From positions 1 to 53,866 of IMG/VR virus record IMGVR_UViG_3300038450_000073: a stretch of 53,866 nt of DNA. One strand, given 5' to 3'. Position 1 is the first letter of the stretch. Every line of letters begins with the position of its first letter. The position numbers and the translations under genes were made by a program. Below, piece after piece: positions 978 to 51,717 of this stretch. The notes beneath the pieces are model-generated. The model worked only from the letters and a program-made list of their open reading frames with translations. It did not search any database and had not been told where the DNA came from. This DNA comes from a virus (taxonomy: Duplodnaviria > Caudoviricetes).

Positions 978-991
978 CCCAGACGTCTAGG
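978..991. promoter_or_regulatory. 14-bp palindromic site, 1-mismatch copy (CCCAGACGTCTAGG)
   Basis: Matches the genome-wide motif CCTAGACGTCTAGG and is followed by caat. Confidence 0.7.
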
Positions 992-4641: not shown

Positions 4642-4655
4642 CCTAGACGTCTAGG
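4642..4655. promoter_or_regulatory. 14-bp palindromic site CCTAGACGTCTAGG
   Basis: Perfect copy directly after the tail tube stop. Confidence 0.8.
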
Positions 4656-15364: not shown

Positions 15365-15378
15365 CCTAGACGTCTAGG
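15365..15378. promoter_or_regulatory. 14-bp palindromic site CCTAGACGTCTAGG
   Basis: Perfect copy that supplies the stop of the 15366..15584 gene. Confidence 0.8.
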
Positions 15379-18487: not shown

Positions 18488-18492
18488 GATTG

Positions 18493-18506
18493 CCTAGACG
18501 TCTAGG
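18493..18506. promoter_or_regulatory. 14-bp palindromic site CCTAGACGTCTAGG
   Basis: Perfect copy just upstream of the early promoter. Confidence 0.8.
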
Positions 18507-18522
18507 GTTTTCGCGGCGGTAC

Positions 18523-18551: not shown

Positions 18552-18580
18552 GTGAGTGTTCCTGGGGAGAAGGGAGTGCG

Positions 18581-21347: not shown

Positions 21348-21474
21348 GTTCGCCGGGGCGGGCGTCAAAGCGTCCGACACAGCGCCAAGGCGGGGAGGGG
21401 CTCTTGACCTTTCTATGCCCCGTAGAGCCGCCTGCGCCCGCCCTGGGTACGTGTAACCGGGACAGGAGGGAGAC

Positions 21475-22273: not shown

Positions 22274-22593
22274 GCCGAGAGACAGCGCGGGTACGGCTGG
22301 ACATGGCGACCGAGGGGTTGCCGTGGATTCGACCGTGGCAGACGTGGCAGAGCCTCGCCATTCACTCCCCGGTTGGTGACGTCGCTTTCGCCGTGACGCA
22401 GGAGGTAGGGGACTTCATCGCCCACGCGCCAGAGGACCTGCGACTCGCGCTCGCCGTGGTCAACGCGGTGAGGTACGACCCAAAAACCGAGACAGGCCAC
22501 GGCCACGTTCACGGCATCGTGAACCTGTGCACCTGCGGCGCTGTTAGTTGCGCGGCCCTCGCCGCGCTCGACGCGCTGGAAGCGTCACTGTGA
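22270..22593 (+). CDS. hypothetical protein (Ead/Ea22-like motif)
   Basis: DFIAHAPEDLRL motif shared with 30156..30527. Confidence 0.5.
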   Translation: MSRETARVRLDMATEGLPWIRPWQTWQSLAIHSPVGDVAFAVTQEVGDFIAHAPEDLRLALAVVNAVRYDPKTETGHGHVHGIVNLCTCGAVSCAALAALDALEASL

Positions 22594-22598
22594 CAATG

Positions 22599-22612
22599 CC
22601 TAGACGTCTAGG
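22599..22612. promoter_or_regulatory. 14-bp palindromic site CCTAGACGTCTAGG
   Basis: Perfect copy upstream of the replication module. Confidence 0.8.
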
Positions 22613-22737
22613 CCATCTGCCGCGCCAAAAAGCCACGCGGTGTCCGTACGGGAGGCGTATGGTCGCGGGAGTAAAAGACGAAGCGGCCCGGGCTCGTCAT
22701 CCGGACCGCTTCTGAGACCAGAGGAGGTGTAGTCCTC

Positions 22738-23223
22738 GTGTCGAGAGTGATCCTAACAGGCATCCCGGGTGGTCAAGCGCCACGCTGGGGACGCCCCACC
22801 GTCTACAAAGGCATCCGGATGCGGTCGCGTCTCGAGGCGCGGTGGGCTGCATCCTTCGACGAGGAGGTCGTCGACCCGACCTGTTGGCTCGTCTCGTGGG
22901 AGTACGAGCCATGTGCTTTCGCCAACGAGTCGGACCAGTACCTCCCGGATTTCCGTCTTTCCTATCGGGGCGAGAACGGCGAGCCGGTCGAGAGCCAGTC
23001 GGGCACTGTCTACCTCGACGTCAAGGGGATGCTCGAAGACCCGTTCCCGGTCATGGCACGCATGGAGACGATCCTCTCGTCAGAGAGGGATGTTGGGCTT
23101 CACTTAATCGTCGGGTCGCCAGAGGAGCCTTCCCGGTGGTGGAGCGGCATTGTCGAAGACAATCGCCTTGCCTGGTACAACGTCAACGACTTCGATACGC
23201 CAGTCAGGATGCGCCCGCTATGA
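22738..23223 (+). CDS. PD-(D/E)XK nuclease
   Basis: YKGIRMRSRLEARWA...WEYEP...YLPDF...YLDVKG. Confidence 0.75.
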   Translation: MSRVILTGIPGGQAPRWGRPTVYKGIRMRSRLEARWAASFDEEVVDPTCWLVSWEYEPCAFANESDQYLPDFRLSYRGENGEPVESQSGTVYLDVKGMLEDPFPVMARMETILSSERDVGLHLIVGSPEEPSRWWSGIVEDNRLAWYNVNDFDTPVRMRPL

Positions 23224-23975
23224 GTGACGAGGGACGCGCCTACGTCAAGCTCTATTCAACCTTCACTGGCACGACATTCTGGGTGCATTACGTGTTCGGT
23301 GATATGGCAAATGCACAGCACCGATACGAGCTATTTTGCGGCGACGCGTATATCCGTCACGAATGGCGCGCCCTGTCCCTACGGGCGATCAAACGAGCAC
23401 GGGCCGAGCTGGTCGCGAGCGGACACCTCACGGTCATCGACGACCGACGCCACGCCGGGCACCCCGCCGTCTATCGCTTCGAGTTCCTGGGCCACGAGGA
23501 GATGCGAAAGACAACCGGGGACGATTTGGCCCCGGTACAGGGGCCAGACCGGCCACCAGCGGGGCCAGACTCGGAAACCTGTCCTCTTATAGGAACTGAA
23601 GGAACCAACACCCCAGAGAGTGACCCCTTCGACGAGTTCTACGCGGTCTACCCCCTGCACAAGGCACCGGACGCGGCGCGGCGTGCTTTCACCCGAGCGC
23701 TGAAGCGGGCATCCTTCGAGGAGATCATGAACGGGGCGCGGTGCTACCGCGATGACCCGGCCCGCAAGCCCGACTTCACGAAACACCCTGCGACCTGGCT
23801 GAACGCTGGGTGTTGGCAGGACTACGCCGACGACCCCGCGGGCCACGCCGAGGCGCTGCCACCTGGGGGCATCCGCCCCTTCCCGCCGGCCGAGGTCGGT
23901 CCGGACTTCTCCGTGGACGCCGACGCCCGCCGCGCCCAACGCGAGCGCCTGGCCGCGCTGAAGGCGGGGACGTGA
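23220..23975 (+). CDS. phage replication initiator (lambda O-like architecture)
   Basis: N-terminal wHTH-like region, C-terminal FDEFYAVYP..K...KHPATWLN...W.D domain. Confidence 0.75.
   Translation: MSDEGRAYVKLYSTFTGTTFWVHYVFGDMANAQHRYELFCGDAYIRHEWRALSLRAIKRARAELVASGHLTVIDDRRHAGHPAVYRFEFLGHEEMRKTTGDDLAPVQGPDRPPAGPDSETCPLIGTEGTNTPESDPFDEFYAVYPLHKAPDAARRAFTRALKRASFEEIMNGARCYRDDPARKPDFTKHPATWLNAGCWQDYADDPAGHAEALPPGGIRPFPPAEVGPDFSVDADARRAQRERLAALKAGT
23517..23610. other. putative replication origin (iterons inside the initiator gene)
   Basis: GGGGCCAGAC at 23540 and 23561 (21-bp spacing), an inverted partial copy at 23527, then an AT-richer stretch. Confidence 0.45.
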
Positions 23976-24568
23976 TGACCGACATCATGGCTGACGGACC
24001 GTTCCACGACAACGGCGATCTGATCGCCCACGTCGCCTCGCTCGGTTACATCGAGGGGCGCGTCCTCGATCTCACCTACGGGCGCGGGAAGTTCTGGACC
24101 GATTTCACGCCGGAGCGCCTGTGGACGAACGACATCGACGAAACGACCGACGCCTTTCTCAACCACGACTTCAGGGCGACCGGGTTCGAGACGGGCGCCT
24201 ACGACACGGTCGTCTTCGACCCGCCCTATCGCCTGCGCGGGACACCCTCGCTCGGCGAGATGGACGACAGGTACGGGACGACCGACCCCGCGACGCGTCG
24301 CGACGTCATAGCGCTGCTCGTCGGGGGCGCCGCCGAGGCGTGCCGCCTCTCGAACAAGTGGGTCCTCGTTAAGTGCCAGGACCAGGTCGAGGGGGGCCAG
24401 GTCCGCTGGCAGACCGACGTCGTCACTGCCGTCGCCTGGGCAGCGAGCTTCGACAAGGTCGACTGGTTTATCCTGAACGGCGGTCGTCGGCAGCCTGCAG
24501 GACGGTCCCAACAGCACGCCCGCCGGGAGTTCTCGACGCTCCTCGTGTTCCGGCGGAAGCCGCGATGA
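23975..24568 (+). CDS. amino-DNA methyltransferase (m6A/m4C)
   Basis: LDLTYGRGKFW (motif I) and VVFDPPY (motif IV). Confidence 0.75.
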   Translation: MTDIMADGPFHDNGDLIAHVASLGYIEGRVLDLTYGRGKFWTDFTPERLWTNDIDETTDAFLNHDFRATGFETGAYDTVVFDPPYRLRGTPSLGEMDDRYGTTDPATRRDVIALLVGGAAEACRLSNKWVLVKCQDQVEGGQVRWQTDVVTAVAWAASFDKVDWFILNGGRRQPAGRSQQHARREFSTLLVFRRKPR

Positions 24569-25095
24569 CCGTCGCCAGCCATCGGTTCAACAACGACCTC
24601 CGCTACCGCGACGCGGCCCACCCGAACAATACGCAGTTCACGCCTGCCTACGTGCTCGACGCCGTGCGAACGGTCCTCGGTGGCCGTATCGAGCTGGACC
24701 CGTGCACGACCGCCGACAACCCCGTGGGTGCGGAGCGGTTCTACTTCCCACCCGACATGGACGGGCTGGCCCTGCCGTGGGACGCCGCCACCATCTACGT
24801 CAACCCGCCCTACGGGAAGGCCCGCGAACCGTGGGTCGACCGCTGCATCGAAGCCATGACCGAGGGGAGCAAGGTGGTGCTGCTCATCCCGGCGCACACG
24901 GACACGAAGGTCTTTCAGAAGGCGTGGGCCAGTTCTGCTGGGGCTGTGTTTATCAAGGGCCGCGTGAAGTTCGGCACCCTTCGGCCGAACCGTCGCCAGG
25001 TCGCGGCGTCGCATCCCAGCGCGCTAATCGGCTGGAACGTCGAGCTTTGGCCAGCCGCGTACCTCGGATTTCAGGCGCACAATGAAGACTTCTAG
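24565..25095 (+). CDS. phage N6-adenine DNA methyltransferase (phage Dam family)
   Basis: TP...LDPC...DGLALPW...IYVNPPYG...LLIPA.TDT...GRVKF. Confidence 0.85.
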   Translation: MTVASHRFNNDLRYRDAAHPNNTQFTPAYVLDAVRTVLGGRIELDPCTTADNPVGAERFYFPPDMDGLALPWDAATIYVNPPYGKAREPWVDRCIEAMTEGSKVVLLIPAHTDTKVFQKAWASSAGAVFIKGRVKFGTLRPNRRQVAASHPSALIGWNVELWPAAYLGFQAHNEDF

Positions 25096-25459
25096 GCCCC
25101 TCCGTCGCACCCGCCTGCGCCCGCGCTCCGACAAGGCCATCGCCCGCGACGAGGCGCGCCGCGCCTGCGTGGCCGCGGTCATCCGCCGCGACAAGGTGTG
25201 CCAGTTCCAGCAGGCGGTAGGTGCGTATCCCGGGTACATCCGCGAACTGGAACTCCCGCCGTCATGGCGCGGGTGCGTCGGGGCGCTCGACGCGCACGAG
25301 CCCAGGGAACGCTCCCACGGGGCCGACCCGACCGACCCTGACCAGGCAGTATGTCTGTGCCGCAAGCACCACGACTGGGTGCACGCGCACCCCGCGGTCA
25401 GCTACCGCCTGGGCCTGCTGGTCCGGGGCAACGCCGAGCCGTACCGGAGGCGGGGATGA
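25082..25459 (+). CDS. HNH endonuclease
   Basis: RRDKVCQ...DAHE...RSHG...LCRKHHDWVH. Confidence 0.75.
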   Translation: MKTSRPLRRTRLRPRSDKAIARDEARRACVAAVIRRDKVCQFQQAVGAYPGYIRELELPPSWRGCVGALDAHEPRERSHGADPTDPDQAVCLCRKHHDWVHAHPAVSYRLGLLVRGNAEPYRRRG

Positions 25460-25663
25460 CACTGCGCCACGACTATTGGTTCTGCCAACTGACGTATTGG
25501 TGGCGGAAACACGCGCATGGCTCACCGGGGCTTTATTGCCCGTGCAGGTGTCACCGGAGGCGGGGATGACCTGGTTCATGGTCCAGGCGGCCGTTGACTG
25601 CATCCTTTTCGGCGGGGTGCTCTTACTGGCCTGGGCGGTTCAAGACCAAGGGAGGCGGGGCTG

Positions 25664-25861
25664 ATGTTCGCCAGCCGCGACGACCTGCTCCGCTGGGCGC
25701 GCACCGAGTGCCCCAAGGCCGTCCTGGAGACGGACCCGAGGACCGGCGAAATCTGGGTCGGGACGGGACTGGAGGACACCGCCGACCCGGCAAATCCGCG
25801 CCCGAAGCACGATTCGCGGCAAAGCTCTAGCAGACCCCCAAGGCAAGGAGACGCGACATGA
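25664..25861 (+). CDS. small hypothetical protein
   Basis: SD and coupled start. Two further tiny coupled ORFs lie at about 25456-25664. Confidence 0.45.
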   Translation: MFASRDDLLRWARTECPKAVLETDPRTGEIWVGTGLEDTADPANPRPKHDSRQSSSRPPRQGDAT

Positions 25862-25925
25862 CTACCTACCGTGGCAGGAGAAGCGAGGCAGCGAGAGGCA
25901 CCGAGACGGAAGAAGGGCGAGATGG

Positions 25926-26414
25926 GTGAAGGCGGCACGCCGCAGGGCGGCGCACACCCGGGCCGCGGGCCTTGTCCTAGCGGCGAGCATGATGATTTTC
26001 TCCGCTACTTCCTCCCCGGCGATGATGCGGACTTCGCCGGTTGGGCGCTCGTCTGCTGTCACTGTGGCGGCGTCGCTGCGGCCCTCCCCAGTCGTGTGGT
26101 CGGAGGAGCCGACGTGGTTGGGGCCGCTCAGGCACTACTCGCTGAAGCCGACGCCGCTGACACCCGAGCAGCAATGGCTCGCCACCCGGGCGGCCAAATG
26201 CGTGAAGTGGGCCGAGAGCCGGGACGAGTACCGGATCGGGGGCGACGAGCCTCACGGTGGCGCGTGGCAGTTCTCGGTTTCCACCTGGCATGGGATCGGG
26301 GAAAGCGGGATGCCGAACGAGGCGAGTCCGGCCGAGCAGGACGCCGCGGCCTACAAGCTCTGGCTCCTGGCGGGCTGGGACCAGTGGGAGACGGCGGCGG
26401 GATGCGGGGTGTGA
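25926..26414 (+). CDS. secreted Rpf-like lytic transglycosylase
   Basis: Signal peptide, then C...AES...GAWQFSVSTW.GIG..G.P..AS..EQ...A..L....GW.QW...C. Confidence 0.85.
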   Translation: MKAARRRAAHTRAAGLVLAASMMIFSATSSPAMMRTSPVGRSSAVTVAASLRPSPVVWSEEPTWLGPLRHYSLKPTPLTPEQQWLATRAAKCVKWAESRDEYRIGGDEPHGGAWQFSVSTWHGIGESGMPNEASPAEQDAAAYKLWLLAGWDQWETAAGCGV

Positions 26415-26432
26415 AATAGGTGGCGCCGGGCG

Positions 26433-26449
26433 CGGGAGTCGGCTACCGT
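26433..26449 (+). promoter_or_regulatory. 17-bp promoter element CGGGAGTCGGCTACCGT
   Basis: Third exact copy, followed by a cctggggaga leader as at 18560. Confidence 0.7.
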
Positions 26450-26478
26450 TAGAAGCATCCTGGGGAGAGGAGCACGGG

Positions 26479-26793
26479 ATGGGCGCAGAACCGCAGCATC
26501 GGCTACGGGTCCGGATGGAACTGGACGACGAGCACCCCTACATCGGCATCGTCTGTCCGTTCGACCCGGACGACCCGGCGCGGCCGTGCCTCATCATCGA
26601 CTGCCCGGTCTGCGTAGAGTCGGCAGCTCGGGAGTGCCTCGTGGAGCACGGCGCCACGGCCCAGTCCGGCTGCAACTTCCGGGAGTGGCACCAGGAGGAC
26701 GGAACGCGGATGAAGTTCCTAGTCGAACTGCCGATCACGTCCGTCGAGTGGACGGGAGAAGGCTACGACCTGATCGTGGAGGTGACATCGTGA
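26479..26793 (+). CDS. Cys-rich hypothetical protein
   Basis: SD gaggag, start MGAEPQH. Confidence 0.55.
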   Translation: MGAEPQHRLRVRMELDDEHPYIGIVCPFDPDDPARPCLIIDCPVCVESAARECLVEHGATAQSGCNFREWHQEDGTRMKFLVELPITSVEWTGEGYDLIVEVTS

Positions 26794-27173
26794 CCGCTGA
26801 ACCCCTGAGCAACGAGGAGCTGGCCGGGCTGCGGCGAGCGTGTCGAAAGGGCGTGACTGCGCCTGACAATCGCTTGGCGGCGCTGACCTACCGAGAGGCC
26901 CGTGGGCTGCTCACCACCATCGACGCCAGGGACGCCGAGATCGCGTCGCTGCGCGACTCGTGCGCCGAGGCGATCAACGTGGCGGTGCCGTTGAAATGGG
27001 ACCGTGACCACATGCTCCACGAGCTAAAGCGCATCGGCGAGATGGCTCAGGAAATCATCGACTTGCGACCGCCTCCGAGCCCAAGCACCGTCGCGTTGGC
27101 GAAGGCGGTTAGCAAGAGAGTCTCCGCTGGGCTTGCTTTACCGAACGTGTCGAACAACTGGGGGACCGAATGA
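26790..27173 (+). CDS. hypothetical protein
   Basis: GTGA overlap. Confidence 0.5.
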   Translation: MTAEPLSNEELAGLRRACRKGVTAPDNRLAALTYREARGLLTTIDARDAEIASLRDSCAEAINVAVPLKWDRDHMLHELKRIGEMAQEIIDLRPPPSPSTVALAKAVSKRVSAGLALPNVSNNWGTE

Positions 27174-27754
27174 CGCGCGACGCGGCCCGCTGCCCCACCT
27201 GCGGCGCGAAGATCGTCCGCTACCGGCACACGATGAACCGCGGGCTGGTCGAGGGCCTGGTCGCGCTCGCCGAGGTGGGGGGCGAGGCGTCGCTGGCCGA
27301 CCTCGGCCTCACGCGCAATCAGGTGGACAACTTCCAGAAGCTTCGCTACTGGGGGCTCGTCGAGAAGGTCCACCGCGACGACGGGACGCGGGTCGCGGGC
27401 GTCTGGCGGGTGACGCTGGCGGGGTATCGGTTCCTCGTGGGTGACTGCGTGCGTTCGCCGAGGCGACCCAGGGGGTGCTTCTCGATGCCTAAGCGCGTCC
27501 AGCTCTCGCGGCGGAAGGGCTACCGGAAGCCCGAGGGGGCGATCAACGTCGCCCGCCCGACGAAGTGGGGGAACCCGTTCCCGGTCGCGGCGGGTGGTCG
27601 CGAGTGGGCGGTCGCCTCCTACCGGCGGTGGCTGAGGAGCTGGGTGCTGGACGAGCAGATTCGTCGCGAGCTTGGCGGCCACGACCTCGCCTGCTGGTGC
27701 CCGCTCGACCAGCCCTGCCACGCTGACGTGTTGCTGGAGCTGGCGAATGCGTGA
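27170..27754 (+). CDS. wHTH-like N-terminus fused to DUF4326-like domain
   Basis: From M at 27485: PKRVQLSRRKG...RPTKWGNPF...L.G.DLACWCPLDQPCHADVLLELAN. Confidence 0.7.
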   Translation: MTRDAARCPTCGAKIVRYRHTMNRGLVEGLVALAEVGGEASLADLGLTRNQVDNFQKLRYWGLVEKVHRDDGTRVAGVWRVTLAGYRFLVGDCVRSPRRPRGCFSMPKRVQLSRRKGYRKPEGAINVARPTKWGNPFPVAAGGREWAVASYRRWLRSWVLDEQIRRELGGHDLACWCPLDQPCHADVLLELANA

Positions 27755-27989
27755 CGACCTCGCCCGGGCCCAGGCCGACCTCGCCGCGTTCGAGGCGCTG
27801 GTCGCCCGCCGTCGCGAACTGACCGCCGAGTGGGTGGAGCTCGAAGGGCTGATCCGTCGCCCCGACGCCTGCCCCCACTGCGGGCGCGCGCTCACCGTGG
27901 ACCCGTTCCCGGATGGGGCGGAGCGGGCAGCGGCGATGGCGGGGGAAGCGGCGCGGGTCTTCGCTAGGACCGCGAAGGAGGTGTCGTGA
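27747..27989 (+). CDS. hypothetical protein with CPHC motif
   Basis: Overlapping start MRDDLA. Confidence 0.5.
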   Translation: MRDDLARAQADLAAFEALVARRRELTAEWVELEGLIRRPDACPHCGRALTVDPFPDGAERAAAMAGEAARVFARTAKEVS

Positions 27990-28618
27990 CGCTCGCCGCG
28001 GTGGACACGCCCGTCGCCTCCTGCGTCGAGTACGGCGAGACGGGGCTGACGTTCCCGCGCGAGCTCACGTTCGACGAGTGGCAGGCGCTCGGCGCGACGC
28101 TCGGGCGCATGGCCGAGTCGGTCATGTTCTGGCTCGGAGACTGGTGGCTGTGGGGCGAGCACCACTACGGCGAGGCCGCGGCCCAGGCCGCCCCCACCGG
28201 CTACGCCACGGGGACGCTGCAGGAGGCGGCGCGCGTGGCCGACCGCATCCCATCGCCTAGGCGTCTAGGCAGTCTCTCGTGGTCGCACCACCAGGCGGTC
28301 GCGGCGCTCGACGAACCGGCCCAGGACGCGCTGCTCGGGCGCGCCGTCGCGGAGCACCTGTCGGTTCGCGACCTGCGGCACGAGGCGGCGCGCGCCAAGG
28401 CCCTCACCGCGCCGGAACCGTCGCCGGGCGACATCCTGGCCGCGGCCGGGCGGGAGCTGCGCGAGTGCACCGAGGCCATCGAGGCGGCATCCGCGCGGCG
28501 CGCTACAGCCTGGGCGCGCTGGGCCGCGGTGGGCGTGACGGTCGCGGACCTGGCGCGGATGAGCGGGGTCACCGCCTACGAGGTACGGTCGGTGCTGGGA
28601 GAGAGGGGGCAGGGATGA
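27986..28618 (+). CDS. LmbU-like DNA-binding regulator with extra C-terminal HTH
   Basis: GL..P..LTFDEW...G..L......FWLGDW..WGE..YG...G....TL...A.V.......RR...LSWSHH..VA.L....QD.LL..A....LSVRDLR. Confidence 0.75.
   Translation: MTLAAVDTPVASCVEYGETGLTFPRELTFDEWQALGATLGRMAESVMFWLGDWWLWGEHHYGEAAAQAAPTGYATGTLQEAARVADRIPSPRRLGSLSWSHHQAVAALDEPAQDALLGRAVAEHLSVRDLRHEAARAKALTAPEPSPGDILAAAGRELRECTEAIEAASARRATAWARWAAVGVTVADLARMSGVTAYEVRSVLGERGQG
28256..28269. promoter_or_regulatory. 14-bp palindromic site, 1-mismatch copy (CCTAGGCGTCTAGG), inside the LmbU-like gene
   Basis: Encodes PRRLG using codons that are rare in this genome (cct, agg, cta). Confidence 0.7.
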
Positions 28619-28881
28619 GCGCATCGGGTCTGGACTACGTGCCTAATAACCCAGTGAACAGGGAACTTGTCCAGGTTGCCGCGGTCGCCGTTGCGACACT
28701 GGAAGCTCGCGGCTGCGGGCTGGGTAACGTTTTCGCTGCGATTCAGGACGAGCGGCAGCGCCAGGATGAGAAGTGGGGGGCTGGCCGTCACTTGCCGATG
28801 ACGACGTGGCTCACCATTTTGACCGAGGAGGTCGGAGAGACTGCCGAGGCAATTCTGAAATCGGGCGAGTTCGACCAGTGA
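28615..28881 (+). CDS. MazG-like NTP pyrophosphohydrolase-fold protein (permuted motif order)
   Basis: ELVQVAAVAVA.LE, ERQRQDEKWG, W.TILTEEVGE.AEA. Confidence 0.65.
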   Translation: MSASGLDYVPNNPVNRELVQVAAVAVATLEARGCGLGNVFAAIQDERQRQDEKWGAGRHLPMTTWLTILTEEVGETAEAILKSGEFDQ

Positions 28882-29096
28882 CCCCTGACCTGCTCATCCA
28901 GGCCGCCCGCGAGCTTGGCCCCGTTCAGGCCCGCATCGACGCGGGGGACGCCCAGGCCGCCGCGGCCCGCGACGAGCGCGCGGCCATCTGGCGCAAGTAC
29001 CTGCGCCTGGGCGTGCAGATGACGCGCCTGGCGGAATTGTCGGGCCTCGACCGCACGGCCGTCCGCGACGCCCTGACGATAAGGAGGGGACGATGA
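28878..29096 (+). CDS. small HTH protein
   Basis: GVQMTRLAELSGLDRTAVRDAL, similar to the C-terminus of 27986..28618. Confidence 0.65.
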   Translation: MTPDLLIQAARELGPVQARIDAGDAQAAAARDERAAIWRKYLRLGVQMTRLAELSGLDRTAVRDALTIRRGR

Positions 29097-29338
29097 GTGA
29101 AAGCACGTTGGCAAAGCGACTGCATTTTCATGACCAGCAGTGGGGCTGGTGGCGGTCACGGGCACGTTGTTGCTGTGGTTGGCGAGGGCCTTGGCGCTAT
29201 TCGCTGCGCGTTCCTGCTCCTTATTGGCAGGCAATTGAGGATGACTGGCAAGCCCATTTTGATGAGCAGCCAGAGGAGATTCGTCGTGAGGCCCGCCGTT
29301 ACATGGTCGATATCCCTGCGACAAGGAGGACGCCATGA
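29093..29338 (+). CDS. hypothetical protein (lower GC)
   Basis: ATGA overlap, C.CGW.GPW motif. Confidence 0.55.
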   Translation: MSESTLAKRLHFHDQQWGWWRSRARCCCGWRGPWRYSLRVPAPYWQAIEDDWQAHFDEQPEEIRREARRYMVDIPATRRTP

Positions 29339-29627
29339 CTGTCGTGTACCTGATGGTGGGGCTCATCGTCGTGGCCGTCGTGGGGATGACCGTGCTGGCG
29401 CTCCGCGACTTGCCGCGGAAGGCGCACCGATGAGGACGCGGGCCAGACACCGAGGCAAGAGGATGGGCGACGGCGCTGCCGGTGGTTGGGCGCCCCCCTA
29501 CCGTGTCGCCCGTCGCGCCCGCGTACTCCATCGCCGCGACGCAATCGACGCGCGCCTCCGGCGCCTGGCCGCGGTGGAGAGACAGCGCGGGCGTAGACTG
29601 CGGGCGCTGGCGCGGATGGTCGAAAAG

Positions 29628-29641
29628 CCTAGACGTCTAGG
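29628..29641. promoter_or_regulatory. 14-bp palindromic site CCTAGACGTCTAGG
   Basis: Perfect copy upstream of the 29657 start. Confidence 0.8.
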
Positions 29642-29656
29642 CAATGTGGAGGCACC

Positions 29657-29926
29657 ATGCCGCTGACAGTCGAGGAGTTCGAGCGTGCCTACGCTGAACG
29701 GTCTGGCACGACTGTCGCCAAGCTTCATGCCTGGGGCCGGTACGGCGAGCCTTGTGACTGCGGCGATGACCTCTGCGAGGGCTTCCAGATGACGCACGCC
29801 TGGGAGGACGCCATTATCGAGGACGTGCTGAGAACGGGCGCGATGCTGCTAGCGCGGGCCGACGAGCTTGCCGCTGGGCTGAGTGAGGCCCTGCCAGAGG
29901 GGTTAGAAGTGCGATGGCTGACTTGA
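29657..29926 (+). CDS. hypothetical protein
   Basis: SD ggagg, FERAYAERSG...PCDCG...CEGF motif. Confidence 0.6.
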   Translation: MPLTVEEFERAYAERSGTTVAKLHAWGRYGEPCDCGDDLCEGFQMTHAWEDAIIEDVLRTGAMLLARADELAAGLSEALPEGLEVRWLT

Positions 29927-30156
29927 CCGACGACCAGCTGGACGACCTGGAGCGCATCGCCCGCGCCGGTTCCCCCGGACCGTTCCAGGCCGCGTTCAGC
30001 TACCGCGACCCGGGGAACGTCCTGGCACTCCTGGCCGACGTCCGCCGAGCGCGCTACCTGCTCGCTCGCGCCGAGGTGCGCCTGCGCAACAACAAGACGA
30101 GCTGGTCGCAGGCTGACGAGATTCGAGCGTTCCTAAACGGGGCCGAGGAGGGCTAA
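29914..30156 (+). CDS. hypothetical protein (Ead/Ea22-like)
   Basis: LTDDQLDDLE...PGP...P..VLALLA.VRR. Confidence 0.5.
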   Translation: MADLTDDQLDDLERIARAGSPGPFQAAFSYRDPGNVLALLADVRRARYLLARAEVRLRNNKTSWSQADEIRAFLNGAEEG

Positions 30157-30527
30157 TGGTCGGACCGACGGATGAGCAGCTGGACGAGATTGAGGCGCGC
30201 CTGGACGCGGCAACGCCGGGGCCGTGGACGTTACGTGTAATCGACGGCTCTAACGTGGTCACGGCTGGCGAGTATCCGATGCGTTCTATCATCGGCCCGA
30301 ATCGTGCCGACCTCGGCTTTATCGCCAATGCACCATCTGACCTGCGCTTACTCCTGGCGGCGGTTCGGAGGGGACGCCGCATTGAGGCCGAGCGCGATAG
30401 GGCGGTTGAACTGCTCATTCACGTGCTGGAGGCTGAGGTGCAGCAGAGATGGTCGGCTAACGTCAGCCTGCACGGGGAGATTCAGAATTACCTACTGGAG
30501 CTGCGCGCCGCCCTCGACGGTGCCTGA
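30156..30527 (+). CDS. hypothetical protein (Ead/Ea22-like)
   Basis: LDEIEARLDAATPGPW...FIANAPSDL..LLA.VRR. Confidence 0.55.
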   Translation: MVGPTDEQLDEIEARLDAATPGPWTLRVIDGSNVVTAGEYPMRSIIGPNRADLGFIANAPSDLRLLLAAVRRGRRIEAERDRAVELLIHVLEAEVQQRWSANVSLHGEIQNYLLELRAALDGA

Positions 30528-30529
30528 TC

Positions 30530-30733
30530 GTGGCTGACGAACCGGCAAAAGGCGACCCGGCCGTTGTGGTCGGCGTCGATGAACGCTACGGCGTCATCTT
30601 CGCGGACCCGTCGACCTGGCCCGAGACGGACGACCCCGAGGACATTCGGCGTGCGCTGGCATCGGGTGGCATCGCGCCGACCCTGCGGACCCGGCCATCG
30701 CTGCCGACGGACTACAGCGAGCTGACCCCGTGA
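30530..30733 (+). CDS. small hypothetical protein
   Basis: Fills the gap, GTGA overlap with the next gene. Confidence 0.45.
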   Translation: MADEPAKGDPAVVVGVDERYGVIFADPSTWPETDDPEDIRRALASGGIAPTLRTRPSLPTDYSELTP

Positions 30734-31446
30734 CAGACCCCCAGCCCTCGCGACCCGACGACAGCCGCTGGTGCCTCGCCAAGACCAAGGGCGGCCCCGG
30801 CTACTGCCACCGCCCGGCAGGCTGGGGCACGCCGCACCCTGGCATCGGGCGCTGCAAGCTGCACGGCGGGTCCAGCCCGAACGCCATCCGCGGCGCGGAG
30901 AAAGTCCTGGCCCAGCAGCGTGTCGCCAAGGCTGTCGAGGTCGCCAACGCCTTCGGAATCGGCATCACCCCCGGCCACGTCGACCCGTTCGAGGAAATCC
31001 TGATCTCCCTGTGGCGGCGCAAGGTGGCCCTGCGCTACATCGAGGGCGAGGTGGGCAAGCTGCGCGCCGAGGAGGTCGTCTGGGTGAAGGCCGAGCAGGA
31101 CGAGTCGCAGGCCAAGGTCACTGAGGAGGGGACGGGGACCGGCGCCAAGGGTGGCGACACGTCGATGGAGCGGACCACGAACGAGGCGCGCATCAGACGC
31201 CGCGCCGAGGTGAACGCCTGGGTGCGGCTGTGGCAGGAGGTCCAGCGCGACCACGACCGGCTGGCCGTCGAGGCCGTCCGGCTAGGCTTGGCTGAGCGCG
31301 AGGTGCGCGTGACGGAGCTCCTGGGCGGCCAGATGTACGACGTGCTCCAGGCCATCTTCGCCGACCCGGCACTCGCCATGACCCCCGACCAGCTCGAACG
31401 CGTACCCGAGGTCGCCAGCCGCCACCTGGAGCTGGTGCCGGCGTGA
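30730..31446 (+). CDS. terS: terminase small subunit (HGGxSTG-type Zn motif)
   Basis: CLAKTK....C..PAGWGT.H.G.GRCKLHGG.SP, upstream of TerL. Confidence 0.7.
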   Translation: MTDPQPSRPDDSRWCLAKTKGGPGYCHRPAGWGTPHPGIGRCKLHGGSSPNAIRGAEKVLAQQRVAKAVEVANAFGIGITPGHVDPFEEILISLWRRKVALRYIEGEVGKLRAEEVVWVKAEQDESQAKVTEEGTGTGAKGGDTSMERTTNEARIRRRAEVNAWVRLWQEVQRDHDRLAVEAVRLGLAEREVRVTELLGGQMYDVLQAIFADPALAMTPDQLERVPEVASRHLELVPA

Positions 31447-31658
31447 CCGTGGACGCGGAACCGCTCGTCGACTTCCCTCGGCGCCTGCCCGCCTACCCCA
31501 AGGCACCAGGGCGGCCCCGCGTCGGCATCGTGCACGTGACCAGCGTGTACGCGGACGGGGGCGCGGTGGAGTGGTCCTGCTCCTGCGGGGACGGGGGCGA
31601 GGAGGCGACGCGGGGGGAGGCCATGCGCGCCGCGGCGAGGCACCGGGCGCTGGCGTAG
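31443..31658 (+). CDS. small hypothetical protein
   Basis: W.CSCG...H motif, GTGA overlap. Confidence 0.5.
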   Translation: MTVDAEPLVDFPRRLPAYPKAPGRPRVGIVHVTSVYADGGAVEWSCSCGDGGEEATRGEAMRAAARHRALA

Positions 31659-31694
31659 TATCCCCGCGCAGTATCGCGTGGTAGTATCACGGAC

Positions 31695-32006
31695 ATGGCA
31701 CGCGCGAAGAGCACGAACGTCCTCGTCCGGTTCCCCCCCGAGACGCACGAGGCAGTGAAGGCGGCGGCGGCCCGGCTCAGGTTGTCGTTCAACACTTATG
31801 TCGTCCTCGTGACCGGTGGCGACGCGTCGAGAACGCTTGCTGAGCCGGAGCACCCAGTTGGGGTCGTCGCGGGGGACGCGGGTGCCGTGGCCATTGAGCA
31901 TGTCGCCGAGCAGCGCCGTGCCGTGCTGGGCCAAACGCAGCACGAGCCAGTTCGGCGGGGTCGCTCCTCCAAGAAGGACGCCTACCTCAGAGGGAGGAAG
32001 ACGTGA
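31695..32006 (+). CDS. ribbon-helix-helix (Arc-like) regulator
   Basis: VLVRFPPETHEAVKAAAARLRLSFNTYVV. Confidence 0.7.
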   Translation: MARAKSTNVLVRFPPETHEAVKAAAARLRLSFNTYVVLVTGGDASRTLAEPEHPVGVVAGDAGAVAIEHVAEQRRAVLGQTQHEPVRRGRSSKKDAYLRGRKT

Positions 32007-32182
32007 GTGAGCAAAGGCCAGAACGCCCGCGCGATCACCTCGACGATGTGTTCGACCGTTACGCGGAAGTCATGCAGTGCGAATACTGCGGTAAGGTCGC
32101 GCCGTGCCGCCCCGACCCCTACGGCCAGCGGCCCGCGTGCAAGACGGACTGGGACGGCATCGTCGGCGGGTTCGACGAATAG
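32003..32182 (+). CDS. small Zn-binding hypothetical protein (59 aa, not in ORF track)
   Basis: GTGA overlap with SD ggagg, CEYCG...C motif. Confidence 0.5.
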   Translation: MSEQRPERPRDHLDDVFDRYAEVMQCEYCGKVAPCRPDPYGQRPACKTDWDGIVGGFDE

Positions 32183-32196
32183 TCTAGACGTCTAGG
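32183..32196. promoter_or_regulatory. 14-bp palindromic site, 1-mismatch copy (TCTAGACGTCTAGG)
   Basis: Upstream of terL, followed by caat. Confidence 0.75.
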
Positions 32197-32270
32197 CAAT
32201 CGCGACCGTCCGTGACTCGCGCCTCCCCGCGTCCTAGCCTTGTCCCCGTGGCCGGGCGTAGGGTGACGCG

Positions 32271-34058
32271 GTGACCCTCGTCGACGACCGCCAGGTGTTC
32301 CTAGCCGCGGCGCGCGCCTTTCGCCCGCGTACGGCCGAGCAGGTCCCCTACTGGTCGGACCCGGTGGGCTGGGCGCGGGACTGCATCCGCTGGCCGCGGG
32401 GGCAGGGGCTCCGCGAGTCGCAGGCGCGGTTCATGGCCAACCTCATCGAGCACAAGCGCGAGGCGGTCCGCGGCCCGCACGGCCTTGGCAAGACGACCGC
32501 CGCCTCGCTGCTGGTGCTGTGGTTCGCCCTAACTAGAGAGGCCGCGGGCGTCAACTGGAAGATCGGCACGACCGCCTCGGCGTGGCAGCAGCTCACGCAC
32601 TATCTCTGGCCTGAGATTCACGAATGGGCCGAGCTGGTCGACTGGGCCAAGGTCGGCCGTAAGCCGTTCAACGACCGGCGCGAGCTGCTGAAGTGGGAAC
32701 TCAACCTGCGTCATGGTCGGGCCTGGGCGATGGCGTCGGACCGGCCCGCGGCGATGGAGGGAGCGCACGCCGACCACCTGCTCATCATCTTTGACGAGGC
32801 GAAGGAAATCCCGAGCGCGACGTGGGACGCCATCGAGGGCGCCTTCTCGACTGCTGGCGAGGGTGGCACCGAGGCGTTCGCCCTGGCCATCTCGACACCC
32901 GCCGAGCCATTGGGACGGTTCTACGAAATCCACGCCCGAGCGTTCGGGACCGAGGACTGGCACACGACGCACGTCCGGCTGAAGGACGCGATCAACGACG
33001 GGAGTGTCACCGACGAGTGGGTAGAGCAGCACAAACGCCTCTGGGGCGAGAAGTCCGCCATCTACCAGAACCGGGTGCTGGGCGAGTTCGCCTCGTCCGC
33101 GACCGATGGCGTCATCCCGCTCACCTGGCTGACGGCGGCCAACGACCGCTGGCGCGCCATGTTCGGCGACGAGCACGACCCGGGCAAGGAGCGCGACCCG
33201 ACCGATGGGACGTGGCGCATCCTCGCCGACGACGCCCCGGTCGACCGGCTAGGCGTGGACATCGCCGAGGGCGGAGGCGACAACTCGACCATCGCTTTCC
33301 GGGTCGGCAACGTCATTACCGAGATCAAGCGCTACCCGTTCGTCGATAACCCGGTCGACCTGGCCACGATCGTCATGGAGGAACAGAAGGCCCACCAGCT
33401 GCCCGAACCGACCGCGACCGGCCAGCGCTATCCGAAGGCCATCGTCGACTCCCAGCCGTCTGGCGTGTTCCATTTCATGCGGAAGGCCCACCGTCCGGTC
33501 GAGGGGTTCGTCGCTGCTGAGGGCACGAAGATGAAGGACCTGTCCGGCGAGTTCGGCTTCCTGAACAAGCGGGCGCTGGCCTGGTGGAACCTTCGCGAGA
33601 TGTTGGACCCGTCTTGGACGGGCGAGCCCGTCGCCTTGCCGCCCGACGACAAGCTGACCGGCGACCTGCTGGCGCCGCGCTACCGTGAAATCACAGGCGG
33701 CCGGATTCAGGTCGAGATGAAGAAGGAAATCCGGAAACGGATCGGGCGTTCGACCGACGACGGCGACGCCGTGGTCATGGTCATGCTGGACCGGAACGCC
33801 GGATCGGGGTTCGCGTCGTACATGCTCGCGGAGGTTCGTAAGCGCGACGAGGAGGTGGGGCAGATGGCCGACGAGGGCAGGCCCTTGTCCAAGGGCGAGC
33901 TGGCAATCGACCGGGAGCGGGCGCGGCTCGCGCGGTTAGCCGCGCGCCCGACGCGCGTCCCGCGCCACGACCACCTCTACGTGCGCCAGCCGGACGGGGC
34001 GATACGGTGCAACGTGTGCCAGCAAGTGCCGCCGTGGCAGCCGCCGGACAAAGCCTAG
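32271..34058 (+). CDS. terL: terminase large subunit
   Basis: Walker A RGPHGLGKT, Walker B LIIFDEA, ISTP coupling motif, nuclease LGVDIA...D and STDDGDA. Confidence 0.95.
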   Translation: MTLVDDRQVFLAAARAFRPRTAEQVPYWSDPVGWARDCIRWPRGQGLRESQARFMANLIEHKREAVRGPHGLGKTTAASLLVLWFALTREAAGVNWKIGTTASAWQQLTHYLWPEIHEWAELVDWAKVGRKPFNDRRELLKWELNLRHGRAWAMASDRPAAMEGAHADHLLIIFDEAKEIPSATWDAIEGAFSTAGEGGTEAFALAISTPAEPLGRFYEIHARAFGTEDWHTTHVRLKDAINDGSVTDEWVEQHKRLWGEKSAIYQNRVLGEFASSATDGVIPLTWLTAANDRWRAMFGDEHDPGKERDPTDGTWRILADDAPVDRLGVDIAEGGGDNSTIAFRVGNVITEIKRYPFVDNPVDLATIVMEEQKAHQLPEPTATGQRYPKAIVDSQPSGVFHFMRKAHRPVEGFVAAEGTKMKDLSGEFGFLNKRALAWWNLREMLDPSWTGEPVALPPDDKLTGDLLAPRYREITGGRIQVEMKKEIRKRIGRSTDDGDAVVMVMLDRNAGSGFASYMLAEVRKRDEEVGQMADEGRPLSKGELAIDRERARLARLAARPTRVPRHDHLYVRQPDGAIRCNVCQQVPPWQPPDKA

Positions 34059-34067
34059 ACGTCTAGG
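34054..34067. promoter_or_regulatory. 14-bp palindromic site CCTAGACGTCTAGG
   Basis: Perfect copy that supplies the terL stop codon. Confidence 0.8.
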
Positions 34068-34307
34068 GTGTTCAGACAGGAGGCAGGGGTGCTCCACCTT
34101 GCACCGTTGAAAGAGGACGACGAGCCGCTGTGTGGGGCGATTGCTCCCGATACGCCCGAGGTTATCTTCTGCCAACGCGCCGAAGGTCACGACGGGTGGC
34201 ACACGGCCGCGGTGCGCCCAGCCAAGGCAGACGGCACCGAGCCGATGCTGGTCGATGAGGACGACGAGGTCGTGCCGCTGACTGTTTATGAAACGTGGCC
34301 CCAGTGA
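34068..34307 (+). CDS. small hypothetical protein
   Basis: C...C....GH.G.H motif. Start uncertain. Confidence 0.45.
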   Translation: MFRQEAGVLHLAPLKEDDEPLCGAIAPDTPEVIFCQRAEGHDGWHTAAVRPAKADGTEPMLVDEDDEVVPLTVYETWPQ

Positions 34308-34561: not shown

Positions 34562-34626
34562 CAATCACCGCTGCGCTCCAGCCGCGGTCCTACACTGAGG
34601 GGCAGCTAGTCACCGAAGGAGGCGCG

Positions 34627-40283: not shown

Positions 40284-40297
40284 CCTAGACGTCTAGG
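40284..40297. promoter_or_regulatory. 14-bp palindromic site CCTAGACGTCTAGG
   Basis: Perfect copy between convergent genes, supplies the stop of 40293..40613. Confidence 0.8.
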
Positions 40298-51211: not shown

Positions 51212-51708
51212 TTGTCGTGCTCGCCTACGTGCCCCCAATGAGCCCCAAGGTGGTCATCGCGCTGAACAAGACCGGCCGCGAGTTCCAGCGCGTCGACGTC
51301 TCCCGGAGCGACGAGCACTACTGGCGCTACTTCCGGGCCATGTGGGCGAACGGCCAGGACTTTTGCAACGTCGAGCAGGACATCCAGGTGTCGCCCACCA
51401 TCCTCGACGAGCTGGAAGCCTGTCCCGAGCCCTGGTGCTCAGTGGCGTACCCCTACCTCGGAGGCGAGTACGCCGGGCTGGGGTGCGCGCGCTTCAGCGC
51501 CGAACTCATGCGACGGCACCCGGGAGCGGTGGACGAGGCCGGGAAGTGGTCGAACGCCCAGCACCACCCGCGCCACTGGTGCACGGTCGATCACAGCCTC
51601 ACGCTGACGCTGAACCGGATGGGCGAGACCAAGCACGTCCACTACTCGGGCGTCACGCACCTAGGGGACCACTGGCCCAGCCACGGTTGCGTCCCTCGCA
51701 AACCCTAG
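51208..51708 (+). CDS. GT-A-like glycosyltransferase
   Basis: NVEQD...C.EPWC...LGCARFS...D...H.H....H. Confidence 0.6.
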   Translation: MIVVLAYVPPMSPKVVIALNKTGREFQRVDVSRSDEHYWRYFRAMWANGQDFCNVEQDIQVSPTILDELEACPEPWCSVAYPYLGGEYAGLGCARFSAELMRRHPGAVDEAGKWSNAQHHPRHWCTVDHSLTLTLNRMGETKHVHYSGVTHLGDHWPSHGCVPRKP

Positions 51709-51717
51709 ACGTCTAGG
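51704..51717. promoter_or_regulatory. 14-bp palindromic site CCTAGACGTCTAGG
   Basis: Perfect copy that supplies the stop of the last glycosylation gene. Confidence 0.8.

Follow-up and report, generated by a model that had tools for sequence, protein, structure and literature searches.

The LmbU-Like Gene and Its Predicted Fold

The window, by which we mean the whole 53,866-nucleotide stretch of phage DNA analyzed here, carries on its plus strand a gene for an LmbU-like protein, and the codons of this gene include a near-copy of a palindrome that recurs at gene boundaries of the same DNA. The two features at the locus are listed below.

27986..28618, plus strand: LmbU-like gene encoding 210 aa (open reading frame call; NF038070, AF2, VIA-align and homodimer prediction)
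28252..28273: in-gene site in its extended 22-bp form, with the core at 28256-28269 (pattern match, codon rarity and flanks)

The first-pass annotation had called the product LmbU-like. The kinship holds, as the NCBIfam model NF038070 matched the protein over model positions 2-163 of 171 with 87.6 bits (E 9.2e-25; 87.8 bits in the genome search), but this score lies under the curated cut-off of 125 bits, so the protein falls short of membership in the family as curated. PHROGs holds no family for ORF 27986-28618, tblastn of the ORF found nothing among 50,697 phage records, and a profile search of PDB sequences with the protein was likewise empty at E ≤1. Megablast of 26000-31000 returned only ~100 bp of similarity, which lies under the neighboring DUF4326 gene.

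The AF2 model of the 210-aa protein (pLDDT 90.5) has a ParB/Noc-type DNA-binding domain at residues ~45-143 and a long C-terminal helix, the predicted dimer-forming part. VIA-align superimposed model residues 45-143 on ParB/Noc/Spo0J DNA-binding domains with Z scores of 10-11.6 and rmsds of 2.1-2.7 Å over 90-99 residues, and all 12 of the top entries shown were ParB/Noc/Spo0J, so that the HTH domain has the ParB/Noc fold. Foldseek found nothing for the protein at E ≤0.001 (best E 0.026). With Pfam HTH_ParB (PF17762), the window protein scored 15.3 bits, under the gathering score of 22.6, and a viral homologue, L062, passed with 25.6 bits. The N-terminus is short (44 residues), the structural matches start at about residue 45, and the window protein gave no Pfam match to the N-terminal ParB-type CTP-binding domain at E ≤1; with no such domain found, a sliding clamp is not expected. 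The profile match and the structural model together identify the protein as an LmbU relative with a predicted ParB/Noc-type DNA-binding domain.

Homodimer prediction for the 210-aa protein gave an ipSAE of 0.66, compared with 0.00 for the best of three controls; the ipSAE mark used for homodimers is one that 20 of 30 known homodimers and 1 of 23 single chains reach. The runs share at least 87% of contacts, the partner pLDDT is at least 82, and the predicted interface takes in residues 93-95. One of these, R93, is invariant in 14/14 aligned sequences.

A Palindrome Dispersed over the Window

The 14-mer CCTAGACGTCTAGG occurs exactly eight times in the window (4642, 15365, 18493, 22599, 29628, 34054, 40284 and 51704), three times with one mismatch (978, 28256 and 32183) and once with two mismatches (23013). 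These 12 matches compare with 0.15 expected from shuffles, and 0/100 shuffles reached 12. Ten of the sites are intergenic and one lies within the LmbU-like gene, a layout of dispersed palindromes at gene boundaries like that of KorB. The sites outside the gene are as follows.

978..991: intergenic site, one mismatch, 12 nt past the stop of ORF 625-966
4642..4655: intergenic site, exact, adjoining the TAG stop of ORF 3592-4641 and 21 nt ahead of the start at 4676
15365..15378: divergent intergenic site, exact, 22 nt upstream of the minus-strand Peptidase_A4 gene 14489-15343
18493..18506: intergenic site, exact, 75 nt ahead of ORF 18581-18892
22599..22612: intergenic site, exact, with a TGA 5 nt ahead of it
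23013..23026: doubtful member, a pattern match with two mismatches and without A/T-rich flanks
29628..29641: site, exact, 15 nt ahead of the ATG at 29657, with a ribosome-binding site between
32183..32196: site, one mismatch, adjoining the TAG stop of ORF 32003-32182 and 75 nt ahead of the large terminase gene
34054..34067: site, exact, including the TAG stop of the terminase gene 32271-34058
40284..40297: intergenic site, exact, 5 nt past the stop of ORF 39665-40279
51704..51717: site between convergent genes, exact, including the TAG stop of ORF 51208-51708

The ten intergenic sites have a common half-site, A-W-W-S-CCTAGAC, with A at -11 in 20/20 half-sites. The closest site upstream of the LmbU-like gene is that at 22599, 5.4 kb away. 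The same dispersed layout is found in three relatives of the phage (L040, L042 and L238), and in L040 the counterpart of the 32183 site is exact. Within 15000-34999, a promoter scan returned no promoter-like sites and a terminator scan returned six terminator-like sites, all of them away from the palindromes. The viral contigs bearing the window's palindrome in multiple copies were all fragments of relatives of the window phage. The exact 14-mer was present in 35 viral stretches, 18 of which show no similarity to the window and hold one copy each; we take these single copies to be chance.

A Near-Copy in the Codons of the DNA-Binding Loop

The in-gene copy at 28256-28269, CCTAGGCGTCTAGG, agrees with CCTAGACGTCTAGG at 13 of 14 bases, with an A to G change at position 6. 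Its dyad falls between C28262 and G28263, the first and second bases of the Arg93 codon. The first-pass annotation had described this copy as read in frame as P-R-R-L-G, spelled in codons rare in this genome and located between an HTH-like segment and the LSWSHH motif, with an Arg pair next to the recognition surface, and each of these points was borne out. ORF 27986-28618 reads the copy as CCT AGG CGT CTA GG, that is, P91 R92 R93 L94 G95. In the AF2 model, the helix T75-R87, which contains TLQEAARVA, precedes the copy and LSWSHH (residues 97-102) follows it, and R92 and R93 lie in the loop directly after the recognition helix. The further description of the gene as carrying the genome-wide palindrome itself stands only in part, because the near-copy is present but, at 13/14 bases, is not itself perfectly palindromic.

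The codons of the copy are rare ones. In a base of 7616 codons from 17 long ORFs, CCT accounts for 6.5% of Pro codons, AGG and CGT for 4.2% and 8.2% of Arg codons and CTA for 2.3% of Leu codons, which gives the four a joint probability of 5e-6. The LmbU-like ORF has 15 A/T-ending sense codons, five of them within codons 89-96. The extended flanks are also kept, A(-11)/T(+11) and G(-8)/C(+8), by way of the rare codons CCA89 and AGT96. From the rare codons and the extended flanks, the in-gene site is under selection at the DNA level. The mismatch adjoins the dyad and is found on the other half in the relatives L041 (71%) and L113 (60%), which may point to decay of the copy and not to tuning.

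Palindromes at the Same Codon in Homologues

Counted at ≥9 of 12 complementary pairs, a palindrome of up to 28 bp has its center at the C/G of the invariant Arg codon in 14/51 rows of the viral set, in 40/80 loci from bacteria and in 48/75 genes from metagenomes. The bacterial and metagenomic loci were picked by the peptide pattern L[ST][WF][SG]HH..., so that their fractions describe that subfamily, and because the homologues are related to one another, independent events are fewer than the percentages suggest. The whole family comprises 12,767 cluster representatives at E ≤0.001. Within each bacterial locus, the background fraction at ≥9/12 pairs is at most 0.003. The center of the palindrome lies 17 nt ahead of a W/F-x-H-H motif (14 nt in L044/L045), and the palindrome sequences differ among lineages, in unrelated genomes. 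The proposal that homologues encode their own variant palindrome is thus upheld for many of them, at the exact Arg codon, but about half of the homologues have no palindrome there. In a genus sample of Streptomyces LmbU-family genes of the LSFQHH type, 30 of 30 were without one, with 3-8 of 12 pairs.

Across the homologues, both the synonymous positions and the mirrored amino acids covary. Among 114 distinct 30-mers, synonymous third positions at 2, 5, 8 and 11 from the center pair in 63, 71, 68 and 54% of cases, compared with 28, 38, 40 and 27% expected. At position 2, the 46 palindromic 30-mers have AT in 21, CG in 12, TA in 7 and GC in 3, with no G-T excess. The mirrored amino acids follow the reverse-complement rule (S-D/E, C-Q/H, V-T, P-G and F-K/N), and of 111 distinct peptides taken from the family representatives, 24 conform to it at each of the three mirrored pairs, a number that 0/2000 shuffles reached. 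The earlier remark that S-R-R-R-D is intrinsically palindrome-compatible is correct.

Regulators that bind palindromes and have dispersed operators are well known, and so, probably, are isolated instances of a regulator whose own gene contains its binding site. Our searches of the literature on LmbU, and on LmbU with phage, found no family-wide, position-locked operator in DNA-binding-loop codons. What we have not found in print is a position-locked rule over a large family that sets an operator in the codons of the DNA-binding loop and fixes the residues flanking the key Arg.

Second Copies in Other Genomes

The array of dispersed sites beside the in-gene copy, the other element of the system proposed at first pass, belongs to the window lineage and, as weaker local clusters, to three actinomycete genomes. 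It was absent from the five other viral genomes scanned whole (three of them complete), none of which has a second copy of the full 20-24 bp palindrome at ≤5 mismatches, and from six of six Solirubrobacterales genomes, in which the in-gene copy stands alone or almost alone. Matches to the 14-bp core with two mismatches, two in the viral genome G001 and one in G002, whose homologue is a methyltransferase fusion, are probably chance. The flanks of 32 palindrome-bearing loci, 251 kb in total, contain no second 16-mer core at ≤2 mismatches. With no or almost no second copy in the five viral and six Solirubrobacterales genomes, a regulon is not a general property of the family.

The three actinomycete genomes (G008-G010; 8.8-10 Mb) have true LmbU-family genes (197-225 bits). 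Inside the LmbU-family gene of each lies the 18-mer TGTCCCGCCGGCGGGACA, which contains the published LmbU site CGCCGGCG. The three genomes hold eight further copies of TGTCCCGCCGGCGGGACA at ≤2 mismatches, and six of these lie 5-40 kb from the gene: one in G008, exact, at 8.7 kb, three in G010, within 17 kb, and two in G009. The distant copies, with two mismatches each, are on contig C78 of G008 and at 9.07 Mb in G010. Two near copies whose surroundings were inspected lie in apparently intergenic sequence. A reversed control pattern gave 2, 0 and 1 matches in the three genomes at ≤2 mismatches.

A Probable Model for the Site and Its Binder

The sites, the fold of the protein, the selection on DNA and the family-wide in-gene palindromes are established by these data, and the explanation that we consider probable is that a dimeric ParB/Noc-type LmbU-family protein binds a 22-bp site and thereby has a ten-site regulon and an operator in its own gene. 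The LmbU-like dimer would recognize the twofold symmetric site A-W-W-S-CCTAGAC/GTCTAGG-S-W-W-T (slash, dyad), and the ten gene-boundary sites would form the phage regulon. The binding, the dimer and the effect on transcription we infer. Several sites are too near the next start for a promoter or overlap a stop codon; there, blocking or gating of read-through transcription appears most likely, the bound protein acting as at an operator or roadblock and not recruiting polymerase. The eleventh copy, slightly weakened and centered on Arg93 in codons 89-96, is maintained by selection on DNA and most likely serves feedback on the gene's own transcription, or capture of newly made protein on the genome that encodes it.

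The array might instead be bound by another protein, from the phage or from the host, the in-gene copy being one more member that controls the LmbU-like gene. That the LmbU-like protein is the binder is a prediction, and a Pfam scan of 31 of the ~54 ORFs called in the window left most without a match, so another DNA-binding protein could hide among the ORFs. In addition, the in-gene copy is the sole site in the 7-kb block 22612-29628, and a regulator of that block would need one. We nevertheless think a different binder quite unlikely, as it leaves unexplained both the different palindromes at the same codon in homologues from unrelated genomes and the extra copies clustered beside the LmbU-family gene in three actinomycete genomes, and the LmbU family is known to bind palindromes. 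There is very little chance that the palindromes work as RNA or single-stranded DNA hairpins (a terminator, attenuator or processing site) rather than as double-stranded binding sites. Several intergenic sites are followed by a short T run, and the perfect 22-28 bp palindromes of homologues could make stable hairpins. However, the RNA folds of five window sites are unremarkable, with 5-6 bp stems and z of -0.6 to -1.9 relative to shuffles, and no terminator was found at the six sites within 15000-34999. Moreover, pairing is kept right up to the dyad (position 1 in 46/46, position 2 in 43/46), where a loop needs none, and mismatches show no excess of G-T.

The slimmest prospect of all is that the in-gene palindrome is a by-product of a conserved S-R-R-R-D/E peptide and codon bias. 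By the genetic code, TC/GA and CG/CG self-pair, so the peptide gives five of seven inner pairs free, and many RRR homologues are near-palindromic. Yet third positions pair at about twice the expected rate and covary, the palindromes reach into variable, covarying flanking residues, and the same RRR peptide occurs without a palindrome in, for example, L073, L081 and L083; in the window, P-R-R-L-G is off the consensus and four rare codons spell the phage's own site. The palindrome could also be a DNA methylation or restriction target, with the domain serving only to aim a methyltransferase. Seven of 10 palindrome-bearing viral homologues scanned are indeed DNA methyltransferase fusions, to MT-A70 in L056, L062, L046, L067 and L078 and to N6_N4_Mtase in L057 and L063. 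We regard such a role as highly improbable, given that the window protein and the majority of palindrome-bearing homologues in bacteria stand alone (190-260 aa), that the scan of 31 window proteins turned up no methyltransferase, and that sites of 20-28 bp occurring once per genome are unlike restriction-type targets.

Returning to the LmbU-family dimer and its 22-bp site, we offer tentatively, and as a rather doubtful extension, a coupled code, in which, family-wide, a single stretch of DNA is both the operator and the coding sequence of the protein segment that reads it. The invariant Arg lies at the axis of the predicted dimer, from where it could read the CG at the center, and the arms of the palindrome would fix the residues flanking it. 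A change in the site would simultaneously alter the reading loop, giving each lineage a private pair of site and protein that recombination could not split. The window phage would then represent a lineage whose private site went on to occupy gene boundaries and turned into a switch for the whole genome. If binding is confirmed, the recognition sites of thousands of uncharacterized regulators, and of phage methyltransferases, could be read from their own genes. The family would also offer a clean natural system for the joint divergence of protein and site specificity, and a way into the gene regulation of a phage group in which hardly any genes are annotated.

Comparison with Known Systems

The closest relative by sequence is LmbU of Streptomyces lincolnensis (NF038070; E 9e-25 for the window protein). 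In the available text of PMC6510168, LmbU is a homodimer that binds the palindrome CGCCGGCG and represses its own promoter, and its binding to DNA strictly requires R101, with which the HTH ends. The LmbU literature, in the parts available, places the sites in promoters and not within lmbU. True family members, in G008-G010, do carry an in-gene palindrome with the CGCCGGCG core, in contrast to the sampled Streptomyces LSFQHH-type genes. The window protein differs from LmbU in scoring under the cut-off, in being phage-encoded and in having another site.

ParB and Noc dimers bind 16-bp palindromes, TGTTTCAC-GTGAAACA and TATTTCCC-GGGAAATA (PMC7383237, available text). The window protein has the fold of their DNA-binding domain in common with them, and TTTCAC or TTTCCC occurs in the half-sites of several in-gene palindromes, three bases farther from the dyad. 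Unlike the ParB-parS and Noc-NBS systems, the window protein showed no CTP-binding domain, the half-sites are more widely spaced, and no ParA partner was seen. In Bacillus subtilis, a parS located within spo0J provides a precedent for an in-gene site. A structure in parB mRNA was considered as the same phenomenon and rejected, as in the available text of PMC13371061 it concerns the 5' end of parB.

The Lac repressor limits its own transcription by an operator roadblock at O3 (PMC3711431, available text), which is the likeness to the feedback proposed here; O3 lies outside the codons of the DNA-binding surface and does not reflect a family-wide rule.

With the stoperators of cluster A mycobacteriophages, the window phage has in common many copies of one short intergenic site. 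Stoperators are numerous short sites in short intergenic gaps at which the bound protein stops transcription; they are asymmetric and oriented and are bound by a different kind of repressor, whereas the window site is a perfect palindrome with symmetric flanks. KorB of plasmid RK2 is a global regulator of the ParB family with about a dozen OB palindromes dispersed over a mobile genome. It has a CTP-binding domain and a partner, KorA, and its own DNA-binding codons are not known to us to contain an operator. The window phage resembles this system in having one palindrome dispersed over its genome.

A palindrome dispersed over gene boundaries and repeated within one gene

The window is a viral record of 53,866 bp with a G+C content of 68%, in which the 14-mer CCTAGACGTCTAGG occurs in eight exact, three one-mismatch and one two-mismatch copies (0.15 expected from shuffles). 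Gene boundaries hold every exact copy and two of those with one mismatch, and the sites and the gene considered here are as follows:

4642 and 32183, sites abutting the preceding TAG stop codon
34054 and 51704, sites containing the stop codon of the upstream gene
4642, 29628 and 34054, sites 15 to 35 nt ahead of a start codon
15365, site within a divergent intergenic region
27986-28618, plus strand, gene for the LmbU-like protein
28256-28269, palindrome copy inside that gene

The ten boundary sites have conserved flanks beyond the core: among their 20 half-sites, A is present at −11 in 20, A/T at −10 and −9 in 19, and G/C at −8 in 18. Therefore, the unit is a 22-bp site with two-fold symmetry. 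Only weak folding was seen for the window's own sites. The TAG in or directly before the palindrome is the stop codon of four genes (4639-4655, 32180-32196, 34054-34058 and 51704-51708), and the divergent site at 15365 adjoins a gene for a Peptidase_A4 family protein (E 6e-28; 14489-15343, minus strand). Elsewhere in the window, a single 1130-aa ORF (34860-38252) combines phage portal, NUDIX hydrolase (E 3e-16) and Mu F-like domains, an unusual setting for a NUDIX domain, and an Imm5-like immunity-protein domain (E 2e-9) is encoded in the early region (19424-20194, plus strand).

The third one-mismatch copy is the one at 28256-28269, where CCT AGG CGT CTA GG is read as P91 R92 R93 L94 G95. As the other two frames of the palindrome contain TAG, P-R-R-L-G is the sole reading possible inside a gene, on either strand. 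The statement of the first-pass annotation that the gene carries the array palindrome applies to 13 of the 14 consensus positions; the mismatch is at the third base of the R92 codon, beside the dyad. Codons 91 to 94 are rare in the genome, accounting for 6.5, 4.2, 8.2 and 2.3% of their amino acids (joint probability 5e-6). Codons 89 (CCA) and 96 (AGT), the source of the extended site's A(−11) and T(+11), are likewise rare, and 5 of the 15 A/T-ending sense codons of the ORF fall within codons 89 to 96. The copy is unchanged in relatives of 98% identity (L040, L237-L241), and in those of 71% and 60% identity (L041, L242, L244 and L113) the mismatch is instead at the mirror-image position. As judged from the sequence, the constraint on the in-gene copy is one that acts on DNA, beyond the peptide alone.

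The best match among bacterial genomes (60% identity) is L113, on a 27-kb contig of an Acidimicrobiaceae MAG. Its in-gene variant is identical to that of the viral relative of 71% identity, a hint of the host group or of a prophage. The metagenome contig L245 (1973 bp only) encodes a 57% identical protein reading P-F-R-R-L-K-G; its palindrome, with half-sites CCTTTAGAC and GTCTAAAAGG, is intermediate between the window's site and the family consensus. Directly upstream of the LmbU-like gene, a DUF4326 gene (27170-27754) is the sole part of 26000-31000 that resembles known phages at the nucleotide level (∼100 bp at 83-92% to Gordonia and Mycobacterium phages).

The LmbU-like protein has a predicted ParB-type fold and dimer

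The window's protein matched the NCBIfam LmbU model with an E of 9e-25 and 87.6 bits, missing the cut-off of 125 bits; Pfam returned only a weak HTH_ParB match, and no match was found in PHROGs, phage records or PDB sequences. In an AlphaFold2 model (mean pLDDT 90.5), residues 45 to 143 align to ParB/Noc/Spo0J DNA-binding domains (Z 10-11.6, rmsd 2.1-2.7 Å over 90-99 residues), the family to which all of the best 12 structural matches listed belong. In the model, helix 75-87 occupies the position of the recognition helix, and P91-G95 lies in the loop directly after it. The protein scores too low for the LmbU family and has no ParB CTP-binding domain; it is a relative of both families and a member of neither.

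A homodimer was predicted with an ipSAE of 0.66, a model confidence and not a measurement, whereas none of three controls exceeded 0.00; this mark is attained by 20 of 30 known homodimers and 1 of 23 single chains. At least 87% of the contacts agree between runs, with pLDDT of at least 82. The predicted dimer forms via the long helix 150-195 and places residues 93 to 95 of both subunits at the interface.

Many homologues encode their own variant palindromes

Following a proposal of the first-pass annotation, we extracted the DNA beneath the motif from homologues. The palindrome is centred between the C and the G of an invariant Arg codon (Arg93 in the window), 17 nt ahead of a W/F-x-H-H motif (14 nt in L044 and L045).

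Complementary base pairs, out of 12, around the dyad at the invariant Arg codon. The bacterial and metagenomic sets were picked by peptide pattern, and their shares are therefore those of the subfamily, not of the entire family.
Viral rows (n = 51): at least 9 pairs in 14 (12 distinct sequences); 8 pairs in 4 more, including the window
Bacterial loci, mostly Actinomycetota (n = 80): at least 9 pairs in 40
Metagenomic genes, 72 of 79 loci (n = 75): at least 9 pairs in 48

Thus, a large share of homologues do encode their own variant, as had been suggested, with a sequence that varies by lineage. The longest perfect arms in the viral rows are 11 to 14 bases, with perfect palindromes of 28 bp in L044, 24 bp in L043, L056 and L078, and 22 bp in L046 and L057. 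Of ten palindrome-bearing viral homologues that were scanned, seven (L046, L056, L057, L062, L063, L067 and L078, all viral contigs) are fusions with a DNA methyltransferase, from either the MT-A70 or the N6_N4_Mtase family; the bacterial bearers are for the most part stand-alone proteins of 190 to 260 aa. Streptomyces LmbU-family genes of the LSFQHH type (n = 30, from a 151-genome sample) have just 3 to 8 of 12 pairs. On the metagenome contig L307, homologous genes at 6698 and 7851, ∼1.1 kb apart, each have their own variant, with half-sites GTCCCGAC and GTCGGGAC, and GTCACGAC and GTCGTGAC; the actinomycete genome G010 similarly has two paralogues, 12 kb apart.

The dyad falls between the first and second base of a codon, such that third positions pair with third and first with second. 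Hence the S-R-R-R-D/E consensus is self-complementary at non-synonymous positions, and the palindrome compatibility of S-R-R-R-D noted in the first-pass annotation holds. This self-complementarity alone, however, does not explain the data. Some homologues have an identical R-R-R without a palindrome, and paired third positions are complementary to each other in 63, 71, 68 and 54% of 114 distinct 30-mers, whereas column compositions predict 28, 38, 40 and 27%. In 46 palindromic sequences the pair beside the dyad is AT in 21, CG in 12, TA in 7, GC in 3 and mismatched in 3, so that all four Watson-Crick types occur, and G-T is not in excess. The peptide itself covaries: mirrored residues obey a reverse-complement rule (S-D/E, C-Q/H, V-T, P-G, N-L, F-K/N), and 24 of 111 distinct peptides of family representatives fit this rule at each of the three mirrored pairs, a count reached in 0 of 2000 shuffles (1 to 8 in five of these). 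Since pairing persists up to the dyad and G-T is not tolerated, these sequence patterns point to double-stranded DNA recognised by a symmetric dimer rather than to a hairpin, in line with the weak folding of the window's own sites.

Further copies are confined to some lineages

Over-representation of the same palindrome in the same genome, as first proposed, was found in the window's lineage and, locally, in three actinomycetes, but not in five other viral genomes and not, or hardly, in six Solirubrobacterales genomes. In the 98% relatives, exact copies are found at matching places (four in L040, one plus one near copy in L042, two in L238), and all multi-copy viral contigs with the window's 14-mer are fragments of the phage's relatives. 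The actinomycete genomes G008-G010 (8.8-10 Mb) encode LmbU-family genes above the cut-off (197-225 bits), whose in-gene 18-mer, TGTCCCGCCGGCGGGACA, contains the published LmbU core CGCCGGCG.

Further copies of the in-gene 18-mer in the actinomycete genomes.
G008: one exact, 8.7 kb off; one with two mismatches on contig C78
G009: two with two mismatches, 24 and 40 kb off
G010: three with one mismatch within 17 kb, one in the paralogue's own codons; one with two mismatches at 9.07 Mb, ∼7 Mb off

Six of these eight copies (up to two mismatches) lie beside the gene; with the pattern reversed as a control, the genomes had 2, 0 and 1 matches. Two of the near copies were inspected together with the sequence around them, and both look intergenic. 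In the whole viral genomes G001, G002, G004, G005 and G006 (three complete), the in-gene palindrome is the sole match at up to five mismatches over its full 20-24 bp, and two-mismatch matches to the 14-bp core (two in G001, one in G002) are probably due to chance. For four of the methyltransferase fusions, examined over the whole genome (L046, L056, L067 and L078), no second copy of the 22-24 bp in-gene palindrome was found at up to five mismatches. A search of 251 kb flanking 32 palindrome-bearing loci, with the 16-mer core at up to two mismatches, likewise found no further copy. The six Solirubrobacterales genomes have no or almost no further copies; their few near matches are in-gene-type palindromes themselves or lie 65-75 kb off. 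In L272, a perfect 16-bp palindrome at 11762 corresponds to one half of the site within the neighbouring gene; it follows directly on a stop codon ∼1.4 kb downstream of that gene, beside a terminator-like hairpin.

A proposed model for an in-gene operator

The simplest account covering all observations is a reading in four parts. Proteins of this family would bind, as dimers, a CG-centred palindrome; in many lineages one operator would reside in the gene's own codons, at the loop behind the recognition helix; selection retaining this operator would be strong enough to mould the protein; and, in the window's phage, copies of the same site would have come to occupy ten gene boundaries, with dimers bound there gating transcription that reads through. 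The in-gene copy may serve as a feedback roadblock. Alternatively, it may capture new protein on its own genome, which would suit the methyltransferase fusions. On balance, we favor the window's protein as the binder, with a functional in-gene copy. A bolder idea, that site and reading loop diverge together because they are one and the same DNA, is only hinted at by the predicted contact of residues 93 to 95 across the dimer axis.

Comparison with known systems

KorB acts at dispersed palindromic operators, and a parS within spo0J and O3 within lacI are binding sites inside their binders' genes. Each part of the system is of a known kind: the domain of ParB/Noc type, the LmbU family, operators that are palindromic and dispersed, and a site in the binder's gene. 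Excerpts of the LmbU study (PMC6510168) describe a homodimer that binds the palindrome CGCCGGCG and represses its own promoter, with an HTH modelled on Spo0J and loss of DNA binding when R101, at the HTH end, is changed. Feedback by roadblock has a precedent in Lac repressor O3 (PMC3711431). A position-locked, family-wide in-gene operator with a peptide imprint was not found in the open literature, subscription journals aside, which included excerpts of PMC6510168 and PMC10763038. The parS/NBS half-site cores TTTCAC/TTTCCC are also present in in-gene half-sites (L057, L046, L135, L131, L296 and others), but there they lie three bases further off the dyad than in parS/NBS, for example in TTTCACGAC and GTCGTGAAA.
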